NCBI GenBank assembly: GCA_041663425.1
Contig: JBAYMS010000004.1
Location: 2,213 to 66,212, forward strand
Origin: Candidatus Omnitrophota bacterium
GTDB lineage: Bacteria > Omnitrophota > Gorgyraeia > 2-01-FULL-45-10
DNA length: 64,000 nt
Direction: 5' to 3'
Shown: positions 4,905 to 16,249 of the stretch, piece by piece
How positions within the stretch are numbered: the first letter of the stretch is position 1
How the letters are laid out: the number at the start of each line of letters is the position of its first letter
Program-made: the position numbers and the translations under genes
Notes under the pieces: generated by a model
What the model was told of the DNA's origin: nothing
Database searches by the model: none
Seen by the model: the letters and a program-made list of their open reading frames with translations, nothing else

Positions 4905-6029
4905 ATGCTCAGATATATGACAAGCGGAGAATCTCACGGCAAATGTGTTCTTGCGATACTGGACGGAATGCCGGCAGGGCTTAAAATAGACGAGGCGTCT
5001 GTAAATAAAGAGCTTTTCAGACGCATGCAGGGTTATGGCCGCGGAGCGCGCATGAAGATCGAAGCTGATAAAGTGGAGATATTGTCCGGTGTGAGGAAAT
5101 CCGTAACTATAGGCAGCCCAATATCTGTAATGATAAAGAACGTGGATCAGTCGATAGATAAGCTTCCGGTCATTCTCGATCCCAGACCAGGGCATGCCGA
5201 CCTTACGGGTGCAATAAAATATAACCTGAATGATGTCAGGAGCGTTCTTGAGCGCGCCAGTGCCAGGGAGACAGTAGCCAGGGTAAGCGTCGGGGCTATC
5301 TGTAAAATATTGTTAGCTGAATTCGGTATCCGTATAACAAGCCATGTGACAGGCATAGGCGATATAACATCTAAGCCGAGTGGATTTAGTTTCGATAAGA
5401 TATTGTCAAGAGCTGAGGCGTCTTCGGTGCGATGTGTCGATCCGGCTGCGTCAGAATTGATGTGCAAAGAGATCGATAAGGCTATGGCTGACGGCGATAC
5501 GCTGGGCGGGACATTTGAGGTTGTGGCTAACGGCGTTCCTCCGGGGCTCGGCACTTATGTTCAGTGGGACAGAAGGCTCGATAGTATGCTTGCCGGTGCG
5601 ATAATGTCTATACAGGCGATAAAAGGAGTCAGCATCGGCGCCGGGTTTGAAGCTGCCGGTATGCGCGGCTCCGCAGTGCATGACGAAATATTTTATTCAA
5701 AAGCTAAAGGATTTTTCAGAAATACAAATCAGGCGGGCGGTATCGAAGGCGGTATGAGTAACGGTGAGGATATTGTAATAACCGCCGCTATGAAGCCTAT
5801 CGCTACGCTTAAAAAACCGCTTTCAAGCATAAATATCAAGACTAAGAAGGCTTTTAAGGCTACGGTAGAGCGTTCGGATGTATGCGCAGTGCCGGCGGCA
5901 GGTGTGGTGGCCGAGAGCGTGGCTGCTGTGGAGATCGCCAATGCGATGATCTTGAAGTTTGGCGGCGATTCGGTCGGTGAGATGCTGCGCAATTATAGTG
6001 AATACTTAAAACAGGTGGCGGAATTTTAA
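4905..6029 (+). CDS. aroC: Chorismate synthase
   Basis: 374 aa; MLRYMTSGESHGKCVLAILDGMPAGL and GRGARMKIE(A) motifs characteristic of AroC. Confidence 0.95.
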   Translation: MLRYMTSGESHGKCVLAILDGMPAGLKIDEASVNKELFRRMQGYGRGARMKIEADKVEILSGVRKSVTIGSPISVMIKNVDQSIDKLPVILDPRPGHADLTGAIKYNLNDVRSVLERASARETVARVSVGAICKILLAEFGIRITSHVTGIGDITSKPSGFSFDKILSRAEASSVRCVDPAASELMCKEIDKAMADGDTLGGTFEVVANGVPPGLGTYVQWDRRLDSMLAGAIMSIQAIKGVSIGAGFEAAGMRGSAVHDEIFYSKAKGFFRNTNQAGGIEGGMSNGEDIVITAAMKPIATLKKPLSSINIKTKKAFKATVERSDVCAVPAAGVVAESVAAVEIANAMILKFGGDSVGEMLRNYSEYLKQVAEF

Positions 6030-6844: not shown

Positions 6845-7758
6845 GAATGGCTATACGGAAGATTACATTAAGTGATGCGGAATATCCGAAGAATTTACGG
6901 AATATGCATACGCCGCCGAAACAATTGTATGTCAATGGCGACTTGCTGGAGCGTGACGAGGTCGCGGTAGCGATCGTCGGCTCACGGCGCGCATCGGTCT
7001 ATGGGCTTGAAACTGCTGAGAAGTTCGGATTTGAGCTTGCCGCGCGGGGAGTGACGGTGGTCAGCGGTATGGCGATCGGTATCGACTCGGCCGCACACAA
7101 AGGTGCGCTCAAAGCCAAAGGCAGGACGATAGCGGTAATGGGCAGCGGGCATAACGTTATCTATCCGCCGCAGAATAAGAAATTGTACGAAGAGATCATA
7201 AGCAGCGGTGCGGTCGTAACGGAATACGACAATGACATGGAAGCGTTGCCGTACCATTTTCCGGCGCGCAATCGTATCATAAGCGGCCTTTCTCTGGGTA
7301 TAGTAGTTGTCGAGGCGGCCAGGAATTCAGGAGCGCTTATTACGGCGAACTTTGCGGCCGAGCAGGGCAGGACGGTGTTTGCGGTTCCGGGCAAAGTTTC
7401 GTCAAGCACTAGCTCAGGCACCAATGAACTTATTAAAGACGGCGCCTGTCTTATTCAGTCAGTCGATGACATATTACAGGAGTTGGCTATCGTGCAGGTC
7501 GGTCAGGTCGGCGGCGAGGTAAAAGAATCGCTGGATAAAAAGATATCGAAACAGACCAGGGCATATATTTATAATTCTCTGACCGATGACGAACGGAAAG
7601 TATATAAAAATTTATCAGATGAGCCGATGTATATAGACGACATTTTAGAAAAAGCAGGCATGGAGCATGCTGCGGTATCGAAAGTGTTGCTTAATTTAGA
7701 ATTGAAGAAGCTGATTTCGCAGCTTCCAGGCAAGCAATTTATACGAAAGGAAAATTAA
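6841..7758 (+). CDS. dprA: DNA processing protein DprA (Smf)
   Basis: 305 aa; Rossmann-like DprA core (VAIVGSRRASVYG, VVSGMAIGIDSAAH) and C-terminal winged-helix region. Confidence 0.9.
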   Translation: MRMAIRKITLSDAEYPKNLRNMHTPPKQLYVNGDLLERDEVAVAIVGSRRASVYGLETAEKFGFELAARGVTVVSGMAIGIDSAAHKGALKAKGRTIAVMGSGHNVIYPPQNKKLYEEIISSGAVVTEYDNDMEALPYHFPARNRIISGLSLGIVVVEAARNSGALITANFAAEQGRTVFAVPGKVSSSTSSGTNELIKDGACLIQSVDDILQELAIVQVGQVGGEVKESLDKKISKQTRAYIYNSLTDDERKVYKNLSDEPMYIDDILEKAGMEHAAVSKVLLNLELKKLISQLPGKQFIRKEN

Positions 7759-9785
7759 TGGCCAAAAACCTGGTAATAGTAGAGTCTCCCGCTAAAGCGA
7801 AGACGATAAATAAATTTCTCGGATCAAGCTACAAAGTTGTCGCCAGTATGGGGCATATTATAGACCTGCCCAAATCGAAGCTCGGGGTAGACGTTGAGAA
7901 TGACTTTGCGCCTAAGTACATAGTTATGACGGACAGGAAAAAAAATATGGCTGCGCTAAAAAAAGACGCCAAGTCCAAAACTACCATCTATCTCGCAGCC
8001 GACCCTGATCGTGAAGGCGAAGCTATAAGCTGGCATCTGAAGAATGTGCTGGGCAGCGAAGATAAGAAATGTTACAGGGTCGAGTTCGACGAAATAACCA
8101 AAGATGCCGTATTGAATGCGTTTAAGCACCCCCGCGATATAAACATGAACCTCGTTAATGCCCAGCAGGCAAGGCGGATACTCGACAGGCTTGTCGGATA
8201 TTCCATAAGCCCTATCCTTTGGAAAAAGGTAGCTAGGGGGCTTTCGGCCGGCCGCGTCCAATCTGTTGCGCTTCGCCTGATAGTTGAGCGTGAAAGCGAG
8301 ATAAAGAAATTTAACCCTCAGGAATATTGGAGTCTCGAGGCTGAGCTTAAGCGTAAAGCGGATCAGCCGAAGGATAAATTTATCGCCAAGCTTTATAAAT
8401 ATAAAGGCGTGGATGCAGATATAAAACACAAGCAGGATGCCGACAAAGCTCTGGAGCAGCTTAAGAAGGAGACTTTTATAGTCAGCGATCTGCGGGAGAC
8501 CAAGAAAAAAAGAAATCCATATCCGCCGTTTACCACATCAAAGCTTCAGCAGGAGTCGTTTAATAAACTGAAATTCTCGGGTGCGAGAACGATGCATATC
8601 GCCCAGACTTTATATGAAGGCGTCGAAATAGGGGACGAAGGGTCTGTCGGTCTTATAACTTACATGAGAACCGATTCAGTGAAAATTTCCAAAGATGCTC
8701 AGGCGGCGGCTAAAGAGTATGTCGTGAATACTTACGGTAACAAATATTATCCGGAGACGCCGAATGCTTATAAATCTAGAAAATCGGCTCAGGAAGCGCA
8801 CGAAGCCATAAGGCCGACACTTCCTTTGAGGAGTCCTGAATCTGTAAGAGATACGCTTACGCACGATCAGTTTAAACTTTATCAGCTCGTATGGAACAGG
8901 TTTATCGCCAGCCAGATGACACCGGCTGTCTTTTCGCAGGTCACTGTTGATATTAACGCCGGCGATTATCTTTTTAAGGCCAGCGATACAAAGGTGGTGT
9001 TTGACGGCTATACGGCTGTTTATGAGGTAGAGAAAGAGAAAGAGGATGATGAGGACGAAAAGACCAAACTGCCGGAGCTTTCCGTCGGGCTGCCGCTCGA
9101 TCTTCTGAACCTCATTCCCGATCAGCACTTTACTAAACCGCCGCCGAGATATTCAGATGCGAGCCTTGTAAAGATACTTGAAGAGCTCGGCATCGGCAGG
9201 CCGTCGACATATGCGCCTATTATACAGACCATTACGGCGAGGGATTATGTCAGGCGTGAGTCCGGGTATTTCCATCCGACTGAACTGGGCACAATAGTGG
9301 TTGAGCTCTTAATGAAGCATTTCACCAAGATCCTTGATGTTGAATTTACAGCTAGAATGGAAAATGAACTCGATGGCATAGAAGAGGGCGAAGCGGACTG
9401 GGTTACGGTTCTCAAAGCATTCTATTCGCCGTTCATACATTCTGTCGAGGCGGCAAAGCTTGAGATGAAGGATGTTAAAAAAGAAATAGGCGCAACGGAC
9501 CAGATATGCGAGCTTTGCGGAAAGCCTATGGTTATAAAGTGGGGCAGGCGCGGGAAGTTTTTGAGTTGTTCCGACTATCCGACCTGCAAGAACGCAAAAT
9601 CGATATCTTCAGGCGTAAAATGTCCTAATGGCTGCGGCGGAGAGCTGGTCCAGAGACGTTCTTTCCGCGGCACCTTTTACGGCTGTACGAAATACCCCGC
9701 ATGCACATTTACTTCCAAAAAACTTCCGGGGACTGAAGACAAAGAAGCCGATGATGCCAAGAAGGATGGGGAATCAGCCGCTTGA
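7758..9785 (+). CDS. topA: DNA topoisomerase I
   Basis: 675 aa; TOPRIM N-terminus (LVIVESPAKAKTI), catalytic domain, and C-terminal Cys4 zinc-ribbon repeats. Confidence 0.95.
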   Translation: MAKNLVIVESPAKAKTINKFLGSSYKVVASMGHIIDLPKSKLGVDVENDFAPKYIVMTDRKKNMAALKKDAKSKTTIYLAADPDREGEAISWHLKNVLGSEDKKCYRVEFDEITKDAVLNAFKHPRDINMNLVNAQQARRILDRLVGYSISPILWKKVARGLSAGRVQSVALRLIVERESEIKKFNPQEYWSLEAELKRKADQPKDKFIAKLYKYKGVDADIKHKQDADKALEQLKKETFIVSDLRETKKKRNPYPPFTTSKLQQESFNKLKFSGARTMHIAQTLYEGVEIGDEGSVGLITYMRTDSVKISKDAQAAAKEYVVNTYGNKYYPETPNAYKSRKSAQEAHEAIRPTLPLRSPESVRDTLTHDQFKLYQLVWNRFIASQMTPAVFSQVTVDINAGDYLFKASDTKVVFDGYTAVYEVEKEKEDDEDEKTKLPELSVGLPLDLLNLIPDQHFTKPPPRYSDASLVKILEELGIGRPSTYAPIIQTITARDYVRRESGYFHPTELGTIVVELLMKHFTKILDVEFTARMENELDGIEEGEADWVTVLKAFYSPFIHSVEAAKLEMKDVKKEIGATDQICELCGKPMVIKWGRRGKFLSCSDYPTCKNAKSISSGVKCPNGCGGELVQRRSFRGTFYGCTKYPACTFTSKKLPGTEDKEADDAKKDGESAA

Positions 9786-10663
9786 TGCAGAGGTTTGTAG
9801 AAAAATTTATAAATTACCTTAAGGTTGAAAAGAATTCTTCGGCGCATACAATAACAAATTATTCTGTGGACCTCAAAGCGTTTGAAGAATTTTTAGGCGA
9901 CAAGGACGTTTCCGCCATAGACCACCTGCTGCTCAGAAAGTTTCTTGCCGATATGCGCGCGAAGGACTATTCGAAAAGGACCGTTGCGCGCAAACTTGCA
10001 AGCTTGCGGAGTTTCTTTAAGTTTATGTATCGCGAAGGGCACATAAAGACCAACCCTATTTCCGCGATATCTACGCCCAAGCTTGATCATAAATTGCCGG
10101 TTGTCCTGGACGAAGGGCAGATAGCAAAGCTGCTCCAGTGCCCTCCCGAGGATGATGTATTCGGGCTAAGGGACAGGGCTATGCTTGAGACGATCTACTC
10201 CGCCGGGATCCGCGTAAGCGAGCTGGTGGGCTTGAATATCAGCAACGTTGACCTGATCGGTGAGGTCATTAAGGTATTCGGTAAAGGTTCTAAGGAGCGG
10301 ATGGTGCCGATAGGCCGTCCGGCAGCTACAGCGCTTCGGAGATATCTCGATAGGCGCGATGAGCTGGGTGTTAAGGATAAAGACAAGAATGCGGTGTTCC
10401 TTGGTAAAAATGGGACGCGTTTGTGGGACAGAAGTGTCCGCCGCATACTTGATAAGCATATAAAGTCATGCGCCGTTGTGGAGCATATTTCGCCGCATAG
10501 CCTGAGGCATTCGTTTGCGACACACATGCTTGATCATGGGGCGGATCTGCGCAGCGTCCAGGAACTTCTGGGCCATGCGAATCTGTCGACAACGCAGATA
10601 TACACGCATGTGACGATGGATCGCCTGAAAGCGGTGTATGACAAAGCGCATCCACGGGCATAA
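9782..10663 (+). CDS. xerC: Site-specific tyrosine recombinase XerC/XerD family
   Basis: 293 aa; phage-integrase catalytic signature (R...HSLRHSFATHMLD...LGHANLSTTQIYTHV); conserved dprA-topA-xerC synteny. Confidence 0.9.
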   Translation: MMQRFVEKFINYLKVEKNSSAHTITNYSVDLKAFEEFLGDKDVSAIDHLLLRKFLADMRAKDYSKRTVARKLASLRSFFKFMYREGHIKTNPISAISTPKLDHKLPVVLDEGQIAKLLQCPPEDDVFGLRDRAMLETIYSAGIRVSELVGLNISNVDLIGEVIKVFGKGSKERMVPIGRPAATALRRYLDRRDELGVKDKDKNAVFLGKNGTRLWDRSVRRILDKHIKSCAVVEHISPHSLRHSFATHMLDHGADLRSVQELLGHANLSTTQIYTHVTMDRLKAVYDKAHPRA

Positions 10664-10703
10664 AGTTTTTGACACGGTAGAATGTGCTGTGTCAAAGTGG
10701 TTC

Positions 10704-10789
10704 GCTTCGGACGCGTAATTTTCAACCATGTGAAAATTACGCTCGGGAAAAATTGCTCGGACGCTGCCTCGCAATTTTTACGCCGAAGC
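10704..10789. repeat. Copy A of a roughly 85-nt structured palindromic element (closing stem GCTTCGG/CCGAAGC + hairpin 10713-10742 + hairpin 10748-10779); inverted homolog of 11901-11983
   Basis: Hand alignment to the reverse complement of 11901-11983 shows about 80% identity over ~68 nt including a near-identical 14-nt loop TCGGACGCTGCCTC, with compensatory differences in all three stems. Confidence 0.6.
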
Positions 10790-10884
10790 TCACCACTTCG
10801 CCACATCACATTCATGGTGAGCGAAAAGGTTTACTGGAATTACGGTTGCCCTGGGACACGTTCAATATCAAAACCGGGGATAGC

Positions 10885-10914
10885 TTGAAGGTTGCAGATT
10901 GTACCAGGTACAAT
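10885..10914 (+). promoter_or_regulatory. Sigma70-like promoter (TTGAAG-N18-TACAAT) overlapping a 17-bp perfect palindrome ATTGTACC-A-GGTACAAT (10898-10914)
   Basis: Hexamers and palindrome read directly; located 30 nt upstream of orphan ORF start at 10946 (RBS aagg at 10935). Confidence 0.45.
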
Positions 10915-10945
10915 ATATAGTCTTAGATAATATAAGGTTTATATT

Positions 10946-11764
10946 ATGAATAATAAGAAACCATTTGCTAACTGGGTCGTGGATGAATGGGACGCCTTTA
11001 TCGAAGTATGGCGGAATAGACGTATGCTAGCAATTATTGTATTAGTAATAATTGTAGGGATAGTGGCATACTGGATTATAGATAAGGGGGCTATGGTTAG
11101 GATAATTAGTGATCTTAAAGCGCAGGTTGCTAAGATTCAGACAGAAAATAAAGAGCTTGCCGTAGAGAAGAATTTGCTTCGCATTGAAAATACTAGCTTA
11201 AAAGAAACTGTTGCACCCCTTCTTAAGCAAGCCGCCAAGGAATTTCCAGGAGAAGAAATTAATGAGTCGTTAAAAAAAATAGTTACTAGACTGAACGCAG
11301 TCGCACCGCTTAGTCAACCAATACGAGTGGCTACCGCAGCCATTGAAGTACGGATCAAGTCCGAAGAGAGTTTAAATAGTCATTTTATGGATCGGGGTGC
11401 TTATATTGCATTTGCTAAAGAAGGATCTGGTTTTGCTTTTGGAACACAAAAGGAAATATTCGTGATTATGAAATCTTTAGATTGTTTTGCTAATCAATTG
11501 GGAGAAGGGGAGGTTGCATATAAAGCACTCTGTAATATGGATGTTGGTAAGGGCATTACTGAAAAGCCCATCTCCCATCTTAATGACGCTAATTATATTG
11601 AAGTAGGATTTTCGCCGATGTTAAAAAAAAGTGATGTAGATGTAACGGGAGGGTCTATTGTTTGTACATTTAATAGTCTGGTTCGTGCAGAATTAAATAT
11701 TCCTCCACAGAAAATGTCTAATGGTGTAATTGTAATTCGCGATGCTAAAATATCTTTAAAGTAG
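10946..11764 (+). CDS. Hypothetical membrane-anchored coiled-coil protein (orphan, AT-rich, likely horizontally acquired)
   Basis: 272 aa; short cytoplasmic N-term, one TM helix (LAIIVLVIIVGIVAYWII), ~80-aa heptad/coiled-coil segment, ~150-aa C-terminal globular domain with no family I recognise; codon usage visibly more A/T-rich than neighbours. Confidence 0.6.
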   Translation: MNNKKPFANWVVDEWDAFIEVWRNRRMLAIIVLVIIVGIVAYWIIDKGAMVRIISDLKAQVAKIQTENKELAVEKNLLRIENTSLKETVAPLLKQAAKEFPGEEINESLKKIVTRLNAVAPLSQPIRVATAAIEVRIKSEESLNSHFMDRGAYIAFAKEGSGFAFGTQKEIFVIMKSLDCFANQLGEGEVAYKALCNMDVGKGITEKPISHLNDANYIEVGFSPMLKKSDVDVTGGSIVCTFNSLVRAELNIPPQKMSNGVIVIRDAKISLK

Positions 11765-11900
11765 TTGTTGGAAATTTAGCTCTGGAATTAGTGCATAGTT
11801 GAATGCTCGAGAGGGCTGTGTTTACGCGACGATGTGCGCCAGATTGAGCGAGGAAATTTTTCGACTCTGTAGTAGAAATTCCCGCAGGGATTTGTGACGA

Positions 11901-11983
11901 GCGGGGCGTTAAAATTTCGAGGCAGCGTACGAGAAATTTTACAGAGCAAATTTTTTACATGGCTGAAAAATTTGCGTCCCCGC
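11901..11983. repeat. Copy B (inverted) of the ~85-nt structured element; closing stem GCGGGG/CCCCGC, hairpin 11946-11975, second hairpin 11909-11940
   Basis: Reverse complement aligns with 10704-10789; flanked by short mutually inverted hairpins 11875-11896 and 11988-12009. Confidence 0.6.
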
Positions 11984-12035
11984 GAGGCACAATCCCGGAA
12001 GGGAATTCCTCGAGGGATGAAAATTTAGGAGTGAG

Positions 12036-13304
12036 ATGCTTTACGACATAGGATTTTTCATATTTTCACTGTTCTACTTGCCGACTTTGATATTCAAGGG
12101 CAAGCTGCATGGTGACTTTGGCGAAAGGTTCGGCTTTTACGGCAGGGAGAAGCGCGCGGCGCTTGCGCAGGCCAAGGGCGCGATATGGATACAGGCGGTG
12201 AGTGTCGGAGAAGTTGCGCTCTGCAGGAGCCTTGTTCCGATGATGCGCGAAAAGTTTCCGCAGCATCCGATAGTCTTTTCGACGATAACAAAGACAGGTA
12301 ATGAGCTTGCCAGGAAATTGTTTTCCAAAGATGCGGTGATCATATATTTCCCGCTCGACTTTTCGTTCGTTGTTAAAAAAGTGATCCGCATGATAAAACC
12401 GAAGATGTATGTTATGGTAGAGACGGAGATATGGCCCAACTTTCTTAAGACGATAGAACGCAATACGATCCCTGCCATTCTTATAAACGGAAGGATCTCG
12501 GATAAGTCCTTCGGGAAATATGAGATGGCGAGGCCGTTCCTTCAGAAGATAATAAAGAATATGAACTCTCTGTGCATGCAGTCGAAGACCGATGCGGACA
12601 GGATAATAAAGATGGGCGCTGCCGCTGAAAAAGTAAAAGTCACCGGCAACATGAAGTTCGACGTTCCGGCCAAGCCCATCCAGTCCTCAGGCGATGAGCT
12701 CAAGAAACAGCTTGGGCTCGAGGAGGGCGATGAGCTTCTTGTGGCGGGATCGACGCATCCGGGCGAGGAAGAGGCGGTTATTGATGCGTATCAGGATATT
12801 GTTAAAAAGATCCCCGGCCTTAAACTTCTGATAGCTCCGCGCCACATCGATCGCGCGGATGAGGTTGCGGAAGTCGCCAGGGGCTGCGGATTTAATCCTG
12901 TTAAATTGTCTGTCCTGCAGTCGGATGCCTCTAATTCCCAGATTTTCATATTGGATACAATAGGCCGCCTGAACGATTTCTATTCGATCGCATCGGCCGT
13001 ATTTGTTGGCGGCAGCCTTATACCGCACGGCGGACAGAACCCGATAGAGCCCGCTATTTATGGTAAGCCCGTGATATTCGGGCCGTATATGTTCAATTTT
13101 AAAGGTATCGCCGAAGCGTTTCTCAGCAAAGATGCGGCAATACGGGTTGATGCTGCAGGTGACCTGACTGCCGTCCTTTATAATATGCTGGCGAATAAAA
13201 ATAGACAGGCGGAGGTCGGCTTGCGCGCCAAAGAGGTTATTGCCGCAAATAGGGGTGCCACAGAAAACGTATTGAATGAAATGGGCAGGTTCCTGAATGC
13301 GTAA
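12036..13304 (+). CDS. waaA: 3-deoxy-D-manno-octulosonic acid (Kdo) transferase
   Basis: 422 aa; N-terminal membrane anchor, GT30 N-domain (IWIQAVSVGEV) and C-terminal GT-B domain; followed by lpxK. Confidence 0.9.
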   Translation: MLYDIGFFIFSLFYLPTLIFKGKLHGDFGERFGFYGREKRAALAQAKGAIWIQAVSVGEVALCRSLVPMMREKFPQHPIVFSTITKTGNELARKLFSKDAVIIYFPLDFSFVVKKVIRMIKPKMYVMVETEIWPNFLKTIERNTIPAILINGRISDKSFGKYEMARPFLQKIIKNMNSLCMQSKTDADRIIKMGAAAEKVKVTGNMKFDVPAKPIQSSGDELKKQLGLEEGDELLVAGSTHPGEEEAVIDAYQDIVKKIPGLKLLIAPRHIDRADEVAEVARGCGFNPVKLSVLQSDASNSQIFILDTIGRLNDFYSIASAVFVGGSLIPHGGQNPIEPAIYGKPVIFGPYMFNFKGIAEAFLSKDAAIRVDAAGDLTAVLYNMLANKNRQAEVGLRAKEVIAANRGATENVLNEMGRFLNA

Positions 13305-14334
13305 TTTTATTTATTCGCTCATGACCGATAAACGCAAAGGCGCGTTTTATTCTATTTTGAAATTTATACTTTATGCCGTTTCTCTCGCTTATGGAGCGGC
13401 TATCCTGGTCAGGCGGCTTTTTTATACTGTCGGGATATTTAAGTCCGAAAAGGTCCCTCTGAAAATTATATCAGTAGGAAATCTCACCCTGGGGGGTACG
13501 GGGAAGACGCCTTTCGTCATATGGCTTGTCGATATGCTGGATGAAGAGTTTGATAAAAAGGCGAGCGTTCTTATCCGCGGTTATGGCTGGGACGAGCAGA
13601 CGATGCTTAAACGAAAACTTCCTGACACACCTATCATGGTCGGCGAGGATAGGGCAAGGTCAGCTCACAAAGCGATAAAATTATATGGAAGCGACACAGC
13701 GGTGCTGGACGACGGTTTTCAGCACTGGGAGCTATCGCGCAATATCGATATAGTGCTGATAGATTCCCGCAACCCTTTTGGTAATGGATTTCTGTTTCCG
13801 CGCGGCGTTCTTAGGGAGACCAAGGAGGCGCTCAAGCGGGCATCGGTTGTTGTGTTTACGAAGACGGATAAAAAAAATGCAGAACTTGACAATGTAAAGA
13901 GAGAGATTAAAAATATAAACGATAATATTGTATTCCTGGAAGCGGTCCACAGGCCTTTTTATGTAAATGACCTAAAAGGCCGTAAAGACCGCCCTCTGGA
14001 ATTTTTGAAAGGGAAAAGGGTCGTCCTTCTTTCGAGCATAGGAGATCCGGGTTATTTTGCCGATACGGTCCGCTCTCTGGGGGCGGATATAGCAGAGCAT
14101 ATAATATTTGCAGATCATCATAATTACAAAGAGTCGGACGCGGAACTCATAGTGAAGCGCTGCAATGAGCGGAAGTTTGATTTTATTTTAACTACGGAAA
14201 AGGATGAAGTTAAATTGCGCAGGATGTCGCTGTCGTTTGCGGGTTATCCCGTAATGACGCTTGCTATAAAGATGGACATTCTTTCAGGGAAGGAGCTTTT
14301 AGTTGATAGATTACGCAGCTTATATACTCGTTAA
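13297..14334 (+). CDS. lpxK: Tetraacyldisaccharide 4'-kinase
   Basis: 345 aa; P-loop VGNLTLGGTGKTP characteristic of LpxK; overlaps waaA stop by 8 nt. Confidence 0.9.
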   Translation: MRNFIYSLMTDKRKGAFYSILKFILYAVSLAYGAAILVRRLFYTVGIFKSEKVPLKIISVGNLTLGGTGKTPFVIWLVDMLDEEFDKKASVLIRGYGWDEQTMLKRKLPDTPIMVGEDRARSAHKAIKLYGSDTAVLDDGFQHWELSRNIDIVLIDSRNPFGNGFLFPRGVLRETKEALKRASVVVFTKTDKKNAELDNVKREIKNINDNIVFLEAVHRPFYVNDLKGRKDRPLEFLKGKRVVLLSSIGDPGYFADTVRSLGADIAEHIIFADHHNYKESDAELIVKRCNERKFDFILTTEKDEVKLRRMSLSFAGYPVMTLAIKMDILSGKELLVDRLRSLYTR

Positions 14335-16249
14335 GGCGCTGAATAAAATATTCAGCATTGTGCCTATAAGCGTATCTTTGTGGCTGGGCAGGCGCATAGG
14401 CGACTTTGCTTTTTTTGTCAATAAAAAGCGGAGGCTCGTGGCGTATGCCAATCTGAAATCCGCGTTCGCATCTGAAAAGACACCTGCGGAATTACGGCAG
14501 ATCACCAAGAGAATTTACCGGAATATGGTCCAGACTTTTGTCGAGCTGCTCAACCTGACAAAGATAAACCGGAAGTATGTAGATAAATACGTCGAAGTCG
14601 TGAATATGGAACGCATACGGAATGCCGCGAAATCCGGCAGGGGGACGGTGCTTCTGACTGCCCATTTCGGCGACTGGGAACTGTCGAGCCTGGTGAGTTC
14701 AGTGGAAGGGTTTCCGATACTGGTCCTTGCCAGGGAGCAGAAGATGAAGCGGCTGAATGAGCTGCTGAACCAGCTTCGTGAATCCAACGGCTGCAAAGTT
14801 ATCAGGAAAGGGATGGACGTCCGGAATATACTTAAGGCGCTGCGCGGTAAAAATATTGTAGGCGTGCTGTCGGATCAGGATGCTGGTAAAAAAGGCATGT
14901 TCGTTGATTTTTTCGGCAGGCCGACATCCTGTCATTCCGGACCTTTCGAAATAGCAAAACATACAGATTCGCTGATATTGCCTAATTTTATAGTCCGCAC
15001 AGGCGGGCCATATCATAAGCTTTATCTTGAAGAATATATTGATTTCCGTAATACGAATAGTCCCGATGATATAAAAGAGAACCTGCAGAAGTTTGCGAAG
15101 CTTCTCGAAAGCTATGTCCGGAAGTATCCCGATCAGTGGCTATGGCTTCACAAGAGATGGAAATCTACTCCTGTCAGGACGACGCTCGTCCTGAATGACG
15201 GAAAGGCCGGTCATCTGAACCAGTCTCTGGCTGTCGCAAAAGAGCTTCGCAGGGCGCGCATGACGCAGGGCTTTAAAGCGGAAGATACAAATATAGTAGT
15301 AGTTGATGTAAAGTATAAGAGCAAATTTTCCAGGGCGATACTTACGGCCGCCTCGCTTTTTGCAGGCTGGCGCTGTCACGGCCGGATGGGTATTATGAAA
15401 TTCTGTCTCGAAGAAAACACGTATGAAACTTTAATGAAGACGTATTCGGAGTTCGTAATATCGTGCGGATCCGCAACTACGCCTGTAAATATTTTCATGT
15501 CAAAAGAGAACAACGCGAAAAATATAACTATAATGACGCCTATGCTTGCGCCATTTACCATGCGTAAATTTAAACTTGCTATAATTCCGCGCCATGATCA
15601 TCCCGCCCGGACAAAGAATGTGGTCGTGACCGAGATCGCCCCTAACCTGGTGGATGCGGACAGGATGAAACGTGATGCAGCCAGTCTTAAAGAACAGATA
15701 GGCGGCGGCGTCGGAGATTCTGTAGCGTTATTTATCGGCGGTGACAATCCGGAATTCTCGATGGCCAGAGATATTGTCAATTCAGCCATAGAGGGGGTAA
15801 CAGAATTTTGTGATCGCTCCGGAGCGTCTATTTTTGCAACGACATCAAGAAGGACATCGCCTGAGATCGAAGGTATTCTGAAGAACAGGCTGCAGAATTA
15901 TCCGAAATGTAAGTTCCTCGTGATAGCTAACGAAAAGAACTTTGATTTTACGGTAAGCGGTATGCTTGCGTCATGTAAGGTTGCAGTGGTCTCGGAGGAA
16001 TCGATATCTATGGTCTCGGAGGCCATCTCTGCAGGCAGGAAAGTTATTGTATTCCGCCTGTCGAAAAAGAATGACGCTGTGACTAAACATGAACGTGCGC
16101 TTAAGACGCTTGCCGATCAGGGGTATATTGCTATTGTTGAAGCGTCAGGGCTGGTCGCAGCGCTTGAGAAAGCCTGGAATGATAAAACGGCCGTAAAGCC
16201 GCCTGAAGATATGGACCGTATCTTCGAGGCGCTTAAAAGGTTGATTTAA
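14303..16249 (+). CDS. lpxL: Fusion protein: lipid A biosynthesis (Kdo2-lipid IVA) acyltransferase LpxL/HtrB family (N-term ~290 aa) + ELM1/DUF1022-like putative GT-B domain (C-term ~350 aa)
   Basis: 648 aa; N-domain has the Lip_A_acyltrans hallmarks (LTAHFGDWEL, ...YPDQWLWLHKRWK); C-domain begins VLNDGKAGHLNQSLAVAKEL resembling bacterial Mito_fiss_Elm1 (PF06258) proteins; TTG start, overlaps lpxK 3' end by 32 nt. Confidence 0.7.
   Translation: MIDYAAYILVKALNKIFSIVPISVSLWLGRRIGDFAFFVNKKRRLVAYANLKSAFASEKTPAELRQITKRIYRNMVQTFVELLNLTKINRKYVDKYVEVVNMERIRNAAKSGRGTVLLTAHFGDWELSSLVSSVEGFPILVLAREQKMKRLNELLNQLRESNGCKVIRKGMDVRNILKALRGKNIVGVLSDQDAGKKGMFVDFFGRPTSCHSGPFEIAKHTDSLILPNFIVRTGGPYHKLYLEEYIDFRNTNSPDDIKENLQKFAKLLESYVRKYPDQWLWLHKRWKSTPVRTTLVLNDGKAGHLNQSLAVAKELRRARMTQGFKAEDTNIVVVDVKYKSKFSRAILTAASLFAGWRCHGRMGIMKFCLEENTYETLMKTYSEFVISCGSATTPVNIFMSKENNAKNITIMTPMLAPFTMRKFKLAIIPRHDHPARTKNVVVTEIAPNLVDADRMKRDAASLKEQIGGGVGDSVALFIGGDNPEFSMARDIVNSAIEGVTEFCDRSGASIFATTSRRTSPEIEGILKNRLQNYPKCKFLVIANEKNFDFTVSGMLASCKVAVVSEESISMVSEAISAGRKVIVFRLSKKNDAVTKHERALKTLADQGYIAIVEASGLVAALEKAWNDKTAVKPPEDMDRIFEALKRLI

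Follow-up and report, generated by a model that had tools for sequence, protein, structure and literature searches.

Palindromic repeats scattered through a genome influence how its operons are expressed, how it rearranges and how well it assembles. The DNA analyzed here (64,000 nucleotides of a Candidatus Omnitrophota bacterium; GenBank assembly GCA_041663425.1, metagenome contig JBAYMS010000004.1, positions 2,213 to 66,212 of the forward strand; hereafter the window) holds two nested palindromes between xerC and waaA, one on either side of an orphan gene. What are these palindromes, and how did they come to fill an operon junction? Here, we report that the two (copies A and B) are copies of one Y-shaped repeat of ~174 bp, family E, lying in mutually inverted orientation. 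They probably represent a previously undescribed, nonautonomous, MITE/REP-like family of structured repeats in a Candidatus Omnitrophota clade. E is seemingly the first such repeat described for Omnitrophota, a widespread phylum without known cultured members; a full-text search of the literature on Omnitrophota repeats or MITEs found nothing relevant.

Two inverted copies of one repeat

The cores of A and B are ~80% identical, with compensatory differences in the two AT-rich hairpins, and a covariance model of the core detects each copy at an E value of ~1e-35. On either strand, both copies fold into a long stem that opens into a three-way junction with two AT-rich hairpins (−49 to −66 kcal/mol; z scores, −4.6 to −8.4; 0/200 shuffles as good); copy A has a z score of −6.0 on the forward strand and −8.4 on the reverse strand. 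The 31-nt arms of A (Table 1) form an inverted repeat that is 84% complementary, helices 2 to 4 of this A-type stem carry compensatory changes across copies, and hairpin H1 of A is a perfect inverted repeat, 7 of whose 12 pairs covary across copies. The xerC stop codon TAA forms the first bases of A, and the left end of B adjoins the waaA Shine-Dalgarno sequence AGGAG (12027-12031).

Table 1. Parts of copies A and B in the window, and locations of sister repeat families in other loci
Feature	Location	Strand	Remarks
Copy A, full E unit	10661..10833	+	173 bp, type-1 outer stem; ends from the 27-copy type-1 alignment
Left terminal inverted repeat of A	10661..10672	+	Degenerate TAAAGTTTTTGA; family consensus TAAAATTTTTCG
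5' arm, outer and junction stem of A	10680..10710	+	GAATGTGCTGTGTCAAAGTGGTTCGCTTCGG; partner 10783-10813
Hairpin H1 of A	10713..10742	+	12-bp arms GCGTAATTTTCA/TGAAAATTACGC, conserved 6-nt loop ACCATG
Hairpin H2 of A	10748..10779	+	AAAAATTGC / GCAATTTTT, conserved 14-nt loop TCGGACGCTGCCTC
3' arm, junction and outer stem of A	10783..10813	+	Complementary to 5' arm
Right terminal inverted repeat of A	10822..10833	+	Degenerate CGAAAAGGTTTA; consensus CGAAAAATTTTA
Cargo ORF	10946..11764	+	272 aa, 35-39% GC, hydrophobic N-terminal segment, coiled-coil-like region
Copy B, full E unit	11854..12027	-	174 bp, type-2 outer stem, inverted relative to A
Right terminal inverted repeat of B	11854..11863	-	Forward strand reads AAATTTTTCG
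Arm of type-2 outer stem of B	11875..11896	.	GAAATTCCCGCAGGGATTTGTG; partner 11988-12009; first hairpin of the earlier note
Core of B	11901..11983	-	Junction stem 11901-11907/11977-11983, H2 11910-11941, H1 11946-11975
Other arm of type-2 outer stem of B	11988..12009	.	CACAATCCCGGAAGGGAATTCC; second hairpin of the earlier note
Left terminal inverted repeat of B	12018..12027	-	Degenerate; element strand TAAATTTTCA
Whole inserted block A-cargo-B	10663..12027	.	~1.37 kb, between xerC (9782-10663) and waaA (12036-13304)
F2	L026 3683-3990; L023 2225-2445; L029 ~7253-7710; L049 ~5230-5560; L039 4291 onward
F3/F4	L033 4683-4900, 6502-6745; L016 6465-6630; L037 4129-4350; L049 909
F3/F4, partial copies	L004 2740-2810; L056 11290-11350

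An earlier note on this DNA had described each unit as a core flanked by a pair of short, mutually inverted hairpins, 135 to 150 bp in all, with TIR-like ends. The strings it quoted lie where it placed them (11875-11896, 11988-12009, and TTGACAC/GTGTCAA at 10669-10695), with the exception of CTCACCA/TGGTGAG of copy A, which is present at 10789-10821, one base off the 10790-10820 given. As described, the flanks of B sit just outside the 11901-11983 core, and copy A has an analogous flanking layout, its flanks being mutually complementary; those of B, said to be reverse complements of each other, are nearly so, with one mismatch, loops of 3 and 4 nt and one 1-nt indel. In place of two independent short hairpins, the flanks of each unit most likely pair with each other and form one long outer stem interrupted by an internal loop, because both the minimum-free-energy fold and covariation across seven type-2 copies support this pairing. 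In the type-2 copy at L036 (loci elsewhere are given by L numbers), every change has its compensating change on the opposite arm, and only 2 bp of the within-arm hairpin are left. Type-2 stems also have a conserved bulged base.

The units proved larger than first described. In an alignment of 27 full copies, conservation runs 20 to 25 bp past the earlier limits on each side and stops at the inverted repeat (T)AAAATTTTTCG...CGAAAAATTTT(A), giving a real size of ~173 to 174 bp; the supposed TIR-like ends are internal stem modules of two types, and the true AT-rich termini lie further out. The consensus ends form an 11- to 12-bp AT-rich inverted repeat (TAAAATTTTTCG...CGAAAAATTTTA). Both termini were detected in 38 of the 46 copies examined, with variations that are inverse-complementary, and at L019, L045, L039 and L004b the run lengths and flanking bases vary inversely, not directly. 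An 8-bp direct repeat, AAAATTTT, was considered as a target duplication and rejected on the unequal A/T runs of L019, L045 and L039. The exact terminal motif AAATTTTTCG occurs once in the 64-kb window, at the end of B, which rules it out as a general intergenic signal.

Across the family, units are 165 to 264 bp long and comprise, from the ends inward, the 11- to 12-bp terminal repeat, an internal loop of ~10 nt, the outer stem, the junction stem, and hairpins H1 and H2. The outer stem is of type 1 (as in A), type 2 (as in B) or both nested, the types being interchangeable, while the hairpin loops are conserved (H1, ACCATG on 12-bp arms; H2, CTCGNACGCTGCCTCG). E is noncoding; no open reading frame is conserved across copies, and indels break every frame. 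Two structural variants were seen. A 28-nt mini-hairpin, CGCCTCGCTTCGCTCGGCGAAGCGGGCT, lies inside the 3' junction arm of three copies of differing stem architecture (L013, L044, L047; MAG STD1_81), at the same position and flanked by repeated GCT(C). A unit at L046 (2067-2260), missed by the core model, has E termini and a type-1 outer stem around a shorter, different interior, which points to modular exchange of the tip.

The structure covaries. Among 28 type-1 copies, 96.2% of cells are paired and double changes occur in 26 of 48 base pairs; shuffles give 10.8 ± 1.7 such pairs, and sliding the partners gives no more than 7. Stem changes are almost all from one Watson-Crick pair to another, and wobble counts are symmetric (G.U, 16; A.C, 15), so nothing marks either strand as an RNA under selection. 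In 36 of 38 copies, the more stable fold belongs to the strand antisense to the genes, by a mean of 8.5 kcal/mol. On these two results, RNA-level strand selection was rejected.

They also bear on the idea that E is an independently expressed family of structured small RNA genes, which we regard as highly improbable. Strongly conserved, covarying structure and invariant loops would suit such genes; against them, compensation is symmetric, Watson-Crick only and without strand bias, neither A nor B shows a promoter or terminator signature, no Rfam family matches, and the units may run into stop codons, lie within one another, join into mosaics or be absent from close relatives. Searched at the gathering score, Rfam gave no match in the window and only one tRNA in 16 element-bearing loci.

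Distribution of the family

The earlier note had allowed that the units might be unique to this locus, with boundaries shared by no other copy, and had proposed a search for more. A 22-nt core motif from the H2 loop region occurs twice in the window (0.03 expected). In GTDB contigs (one genome per species), the core pattern was found at 51 loci, ~43 of them in six Omnitrophota MAGs; the remaining loci, in unrelated phyla, look like chance matches. With the covariance model, 47 copies were identified in the loci of six other Candidatus Omnitrophota MAGs, in addition to the 2 in the window, and further copies were found in metagenome contigs, so neither supposition held. The copies sit at mostly unrelated loci and have boundaries in common. 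Viral contigs scanned with the core motif gave 0 matches.

Many copies are at contig ends, and L002, from an independent assembly, starts within B, at approximately window position 11981. As contigs break inside E, the repeat is a ready marker for MAG fragmentation.

Copies are 86% identical within genomes and 83% between genomes, which leaves weak concerted evolution within genomes at most. Four junctions are common to several MAGs whose flanking proteins there are only 68 to 80% identical; the copies at these shared junctions are of differing subtypes and 70 to 94% alike, no closer than random between-genome pairs (83%). Because similarity between species is about that within a genome, old, selected elements fit better than a recent burst.

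The earlier note had placed the units among MITE-like families. That assignment stands as far as dispersed, noncoding palindromic repeats go: E is small and noncoding, and its copies are dispersed, share terminal inverted repeats and are polymorphic for presence or absence. A search of ~1 Mb of loci for paired termini 0.7 to 3 kb apart yielded no convincing autonomous partner or transposase with the same ends, and no pair of termini there encloses a transposase-sized ORF.

At least two or three other structured families (F2, F3/F4) have the termini of E and cluster with it (Table 1). F2 (~220 to 450 bp) begins and ends like E (AAATTTTTCGGGTG[A/C]CGCGGC...GCCGCGG..AGGACCCGAAAAATTT), has no Rfam match, and often closes the far side of a cargo or sits 12 nt from an E copy. 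F3 and F4 (~250 bp) are apparently one family in two orientations, with the same AT-rich termini and with the hairpins AAATTTCGAT...ATCGAAATTT and GCAAATTGCATGCC.AATGCAATTTGC. F3/F4 frequently adjoins E, so the units form BIME-like mosaics.

Insertion between xerC and waaA

How the palindromes came to this junction can be read from relatives. At L056 and L057, whose XerC proteins are 77 to 78% identical to that of the window, only 6 nt separate the two genes (xerC TAG-agagcc-ATG waaA); the 1.37-kb block of A, orphan gene and B is thus an insertion. An element with cargo occupies the same junction at L049 and L029, as in the window, and a single element without cargo occupies it at L040. At L055, with an XerC in the same identity range, 57 nt separate the two genes. 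This spacer (6880-6936), which contains the perfect 16-bp hairpin GACCGACCCGGTCGAC-atcc-GTCGACCGGGTCGGTC, is a further small palindromic insertion in the same place.

The block is edged by TA at 10661-10662 and TA at 12026-12027. Its left junction reads GCA-TA|AAGTTTTTG and its right junction AAAATT|TA-GGAGTGAG-ATG, the latter matching the empty site GCA-TA-GAGAGCC-ATG. From this alignment, the block would fit a single insertion into the xerC stop codon, at its TA, with TAA regenerated. Of 38 copies, 25 have T before the left end, 23 have A after the right end, and 17 have both. Because TA is palindromic, a T...A flank could equally be a duplicated TA target or the inverted repeat lengthened by a twelfth base pair. 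The empty-site comparison proposed in the earlier note thus finds the same junctions filled and empty among relatives, with a flanking TA that may be a target-site duplication or part of the element.

A second junction behaves similarly. The junction between the lpxL-fusion gene and a glycosyltransferase gene is empty in the window (+5 nt) and at L055 (−4 nt), and at L056 it holds an element and part of a second unit. The fusion gene itself (window 14303-16249, in the LPS cluster) encodes a 648-aa protein joining Lip_A_acyltrans to an ELM1-like domain (Mito_fiss_Elm1) and is conserved at L055 and L056. Within the block, a 9-nt direct repeat, CTGGAATTA, occurs at 10840-10848, just past the right end of A, and at 11783-11791, ~70 nt before the right end of B; the pair roughly brackets the cargo (chance, ~0.04).

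The earlier note had suggested that copy B may supply or modulate the waaA promoter. The attraction of letting B drive or regulate the waaA LPS operon is plain, given that B ends 9 nt before the waaA ATG, that the Shine-Dalgarno sequence adjoins its terminal repeat, and that 1.37 kb of inserted DNA parts waaA from xerC, its former operon partner. We nevertheless consider it very unlikely. A scan of 10500-12200 for sigma-70 promoters and intrinsic terminators found nothing in A or B beyond chance, and the only nearby forward promoter-like site (10885-10914) lies upstream of the cargo ORF. Other copies stand in no fixed relation to gene starts, most of them adjoining gene ends, and B is in the minority orientation. 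In relatives lacking the insertion, waaA starts 6 nt after xerC, which makes it operonic. Because the hairpin ends so close to the ATG, with the Shine-Dalgarno sequence adjoining the repeat, it is possible that B acts on the waaA leader as a hairpin.

Position and orientation of copies

All E copies are intergenic, and most are tied to gene ends. The stop codon of an upstream, codirectional gene overlaps the left end of E in 17 to 19 of 47 copies and lies within 9 nt of it in 31; for 15 of 38, the next start codon is at most 25 nt downstream. Upstream of the copies lie ordinary housekeeping genes with no relation to one another, among them pfk, dxs, dnaK, ilvC, dapB, ribH and alr. Twenty-seven copies are codirectional with both neighbors and 5 are reversed (~21 versus 5 when shared junctions are discounted). 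No reversed copy sits on a stop codon, against the 17 to 19 forward ones, although both ends of the element read alike.

Such placement would suit a cis element maintained by the host, in the manner of REP/BIME or ERIC: a large hairpin, transcribed between the cistrons of an operon, through which the mRNA would be processed or stabilized or its translation coupled. This account overlaps with that of a MITE/REP-like nonautonomous family, and the difference lies in what keeps the copies, selection or ongoing transposition. The orientation bias (27 versus 5), the position of copies exactly between a stop codon and the next Shine-Dalgarno sequence or start, the filling of the same junctions where flanking proteins are only 68 to 80% identical, the conserved loops and covarying stems, and the mosaic clusters with other palindromic units, as in BIMEs, all speak for it. 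We consider it somewhat unlikely, as the stems lack strand asymmetry (G.U, 16; A.C, 15), the antisense strand folds more stably in 36 of 38 copies, and close relatives do without the element and without visible replacement, which makes it dispensable at those junctions.

Cargo genes

Low-GC DNA adjoins 9 to 11 copies, always on the H2 (right) side and in 0 cases on the left. The cargo genes beside E encode AbiGi, an HNH nuclease, an NYN nuclease and orphan proteins. At xerC-waaA, the cargo differs among three species (an orphan; an HNH gene; an NYN gene plus an ORF), with E on its left and a unit with the same termini on its right (a reversed E in the window, F2 at L049 and L029). L004 has the layout of the window, with an unrelated ORF between inverted copies after xerD. 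Cargo is also found beside E away from xer genes (L023, L006, L017).

The cargo ORF of the window matched no Pfam or PADLOC family significantly (weak YabA-like match, E = 0.02). No homologue is more than 45% identical to it, and the homologues come from Planctomycetes, a Thermoplasmata archaeon and unbinned contigs, a scatter that suggests horizontal transfer. Two further roles for the cargo were rejected: a gene travelling with E, as the homologues in other phyla are not flanked by E, and a transposase common to the window and L004, as the two ORFs are mutually unrelated and belong to no Pfam family.

Six copies in five genomes (including L058) lie immediately 3' of xerC or xerD. Elsewhere, an E copy at L023 (6857-7067) stands between ruvC and ruvA, inside the ruvCAB cluster, and copies also follow recO (L005/L047) and rarA/mgsA (L044); an excess of recombination genes (xerC, xerD, ruvC, recO, rarA) upstream of E is possible. 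The xerC gene of the window encodes a 293-aa Xer-type protein and belongs to a conserved dprA-topA-xerC operon.

These neighbors raise the question whether E and its same-termini sister units are boundary sites of cassette exchange, across which accessory or defense genes are swapped, possibly by XerC/XerD. Consistent with this are the six copies directly 3' of xerC/xerD in five genomes, the cargo of xerC-waaA that changes among three species and is closed on both sides by same-termini units, the cargo held between inverted copies in the window and at L004, and its constant position on the H2 side. H1 itself, with 12-bp arms and a conserved 6-bp spacer, has the layout of a tyrosine-recombinase core site, and the conserved bulged base of type-2 stems would also suit such a site. 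We nonetheless find exchange of this kind quite unlikely. Some 40 of the 47 copies follow unrelated housekeeping genes and carry no cargo, cargo also occurs beside E away from xer genes (L023, L006, L017), and the copies are dispersed rather than in co-oriented arrays. E has no resemblance to dif (ATAA-N6-TTAT) or to the R'/R'' boxes of attC, and the adjacent recombinase is the Xer-type protein of a conserved operon. The copies at xer junctions may count as only two events, and one-sided cargo also follows if the left end is sealed against the host gene.

Proposed origin of the repeats

The reading that we prefer remains that of a MITE/REP-like nonautonomous family. Dispersal, shared ends and empty sites suggest that E is mobile. 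An enzyme acting in trans would move the units by recognizing the shared termini and possibly the hairpins, and any two inverted units could carry the DNA between them. At xerC-waaA, a block of A, a horizontally acquired orphan gene and inverted B would have filled the former 6-nt junction, entering at the TA of the xerC stop codon. Since the element begins with A, the TAA stop would be regenerated, and the original spacer after the duplicated TA would still hold the waaA ribosome-binding site. In compact genomes, stop codons and tight operon junctions would be the main places where copies persist, in the orientation that the host tolerates, and the surviving copies would be cotranscribed as a large intercistronic hairpin.

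A simple MITE does not account for everything. A transposase that recognizes only the ends would need neither conserved loops nor compensated stems, strict orientation with one-sided cargo (9 to 11 versus 0) is not predicted by simple cut-and-paste insertion, and the enrichment beside xerC, xerD, ruvC, recO and rarA is left without an explanation. Conserved loops, covarying stems, the ambiguous TA, strict orientation and a similarity between species as high as that within a genome speak against a purely selfish element of recent activity and favor a constraint at the level of the host or of the structure, as in the REP/ERIC-like account.

E offers a natural test case of a mobile hairpin placed between a stop codon and the next start with the operon unbroken, and it marks entry points of small defense-like genes (AbiGi, HNH, NYN) into streamlined genomes. 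Should mechanism, and not survival bias, underlie both the proximity to xer genes and the one-sidedness of the cargo, E would point to a new route of gene capture; were cassette exchange to be the true explanation, an integron- or pdif-like mechanism would operate with housekeeping Xer proteins on Y-shaped sites of 170 bp.

Comparison with known systems

REP/BIME and REPIN-RAYT elements resemble E in the placement of their extragenic palindromic units, within operons or at the 3' ends of genes, in forming mosaic clusters and in compensatory upkeep of hairpins, which suggests recognition of a folded strand. REP units, however, measure 20 to 40 nt, carry a conserved 5' tetranucleotide and flank a RAYT gene, and REPINs are simple doublet hairpins, whereas E is four to eight times longer and has terminal inverted repeats; no RAYT-like (Y1 transposase) gene was noticed next to any E copy. 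PATEs, derived from IS200/IS605, have subterminal hairpins, lack terminal inverted repeats and insert 3' of a fixed tetra- or pentanucleotide without duplication; E, in contrast, has clear terminal inverted repeats and central hairpins.

With MITE-flanked composites (integron mobilization units, MITE-bracketed resistance genes), E has in common an inverted pair of repeats that brackets a foreign gene, the whole being bounded by the outer ends of the repeats. It differs in that the cargo homologues elsewhere are not flanked by the repeat, and the suggested movement of A-cargo-B as one piece rests on one empty-site comparison.

Like the pdif modules of Acinetobacter and the attC cassettes of integrons, E can bound single accessory genes with structured or inverted sites, at a locus where the cargo varies and xer genes are close. 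The 28-bp inverted XerC-6 nt-XerD sites of pdif have no counterpart in E, which lacks a dif-like 11-6-11 arrangement; H1 is 12-6-12, with unrelated arms. attC sites carry R'' (RYYYAAC) and R' (GTTRRRY) and stand in co-oriented arrays next to intI/attI, whereas E ends in AAATTTTTCG, has no GTT/AAC boxes and is dispersed. In attC cassettes, the site follows a promoterless ORF, while most E copies carry no cargo, and neither intI nor attI is present. The folded attP of CTX phage is a further likeness, as a structured Xer site, should E serve cassette exchange.

ERIC/IRU and BOX/RUP are likewise imperfect palindromes (~120 to 200 bp) in transcribed intergenic regions, with size variants that arise through internal insertions or modules, occurrence across species and no known mobilizing enzyme. 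Their sequences and hosts are unrelated to those of E, which has 11- to 12-bp AT-rich termini common to several families, folds around a three-way junction and can bracket cargo genes.

The Correia elements of Neisseria (CREE/NEMIS) are noncoding units of 100 to 160 bp with terminal inverted repeats and TA flanks, present in tens to hundreds of intergenic copies, often cotranscribed as long hairpins and polymorphic for presence or absence, and in these respects E is like them. No counterpart of the Correia promoter and IHF site is established in E. Correia is Neisseria specific (100 to 155 bp, 26-bp inverted repeats, TA duplication), whereas E is of unrelated sequence, with copies all in Omnitrophota, and is set apart by its Y shape with two conserved internal hairpins, its strong orientation bias and its overlap with stop codons.
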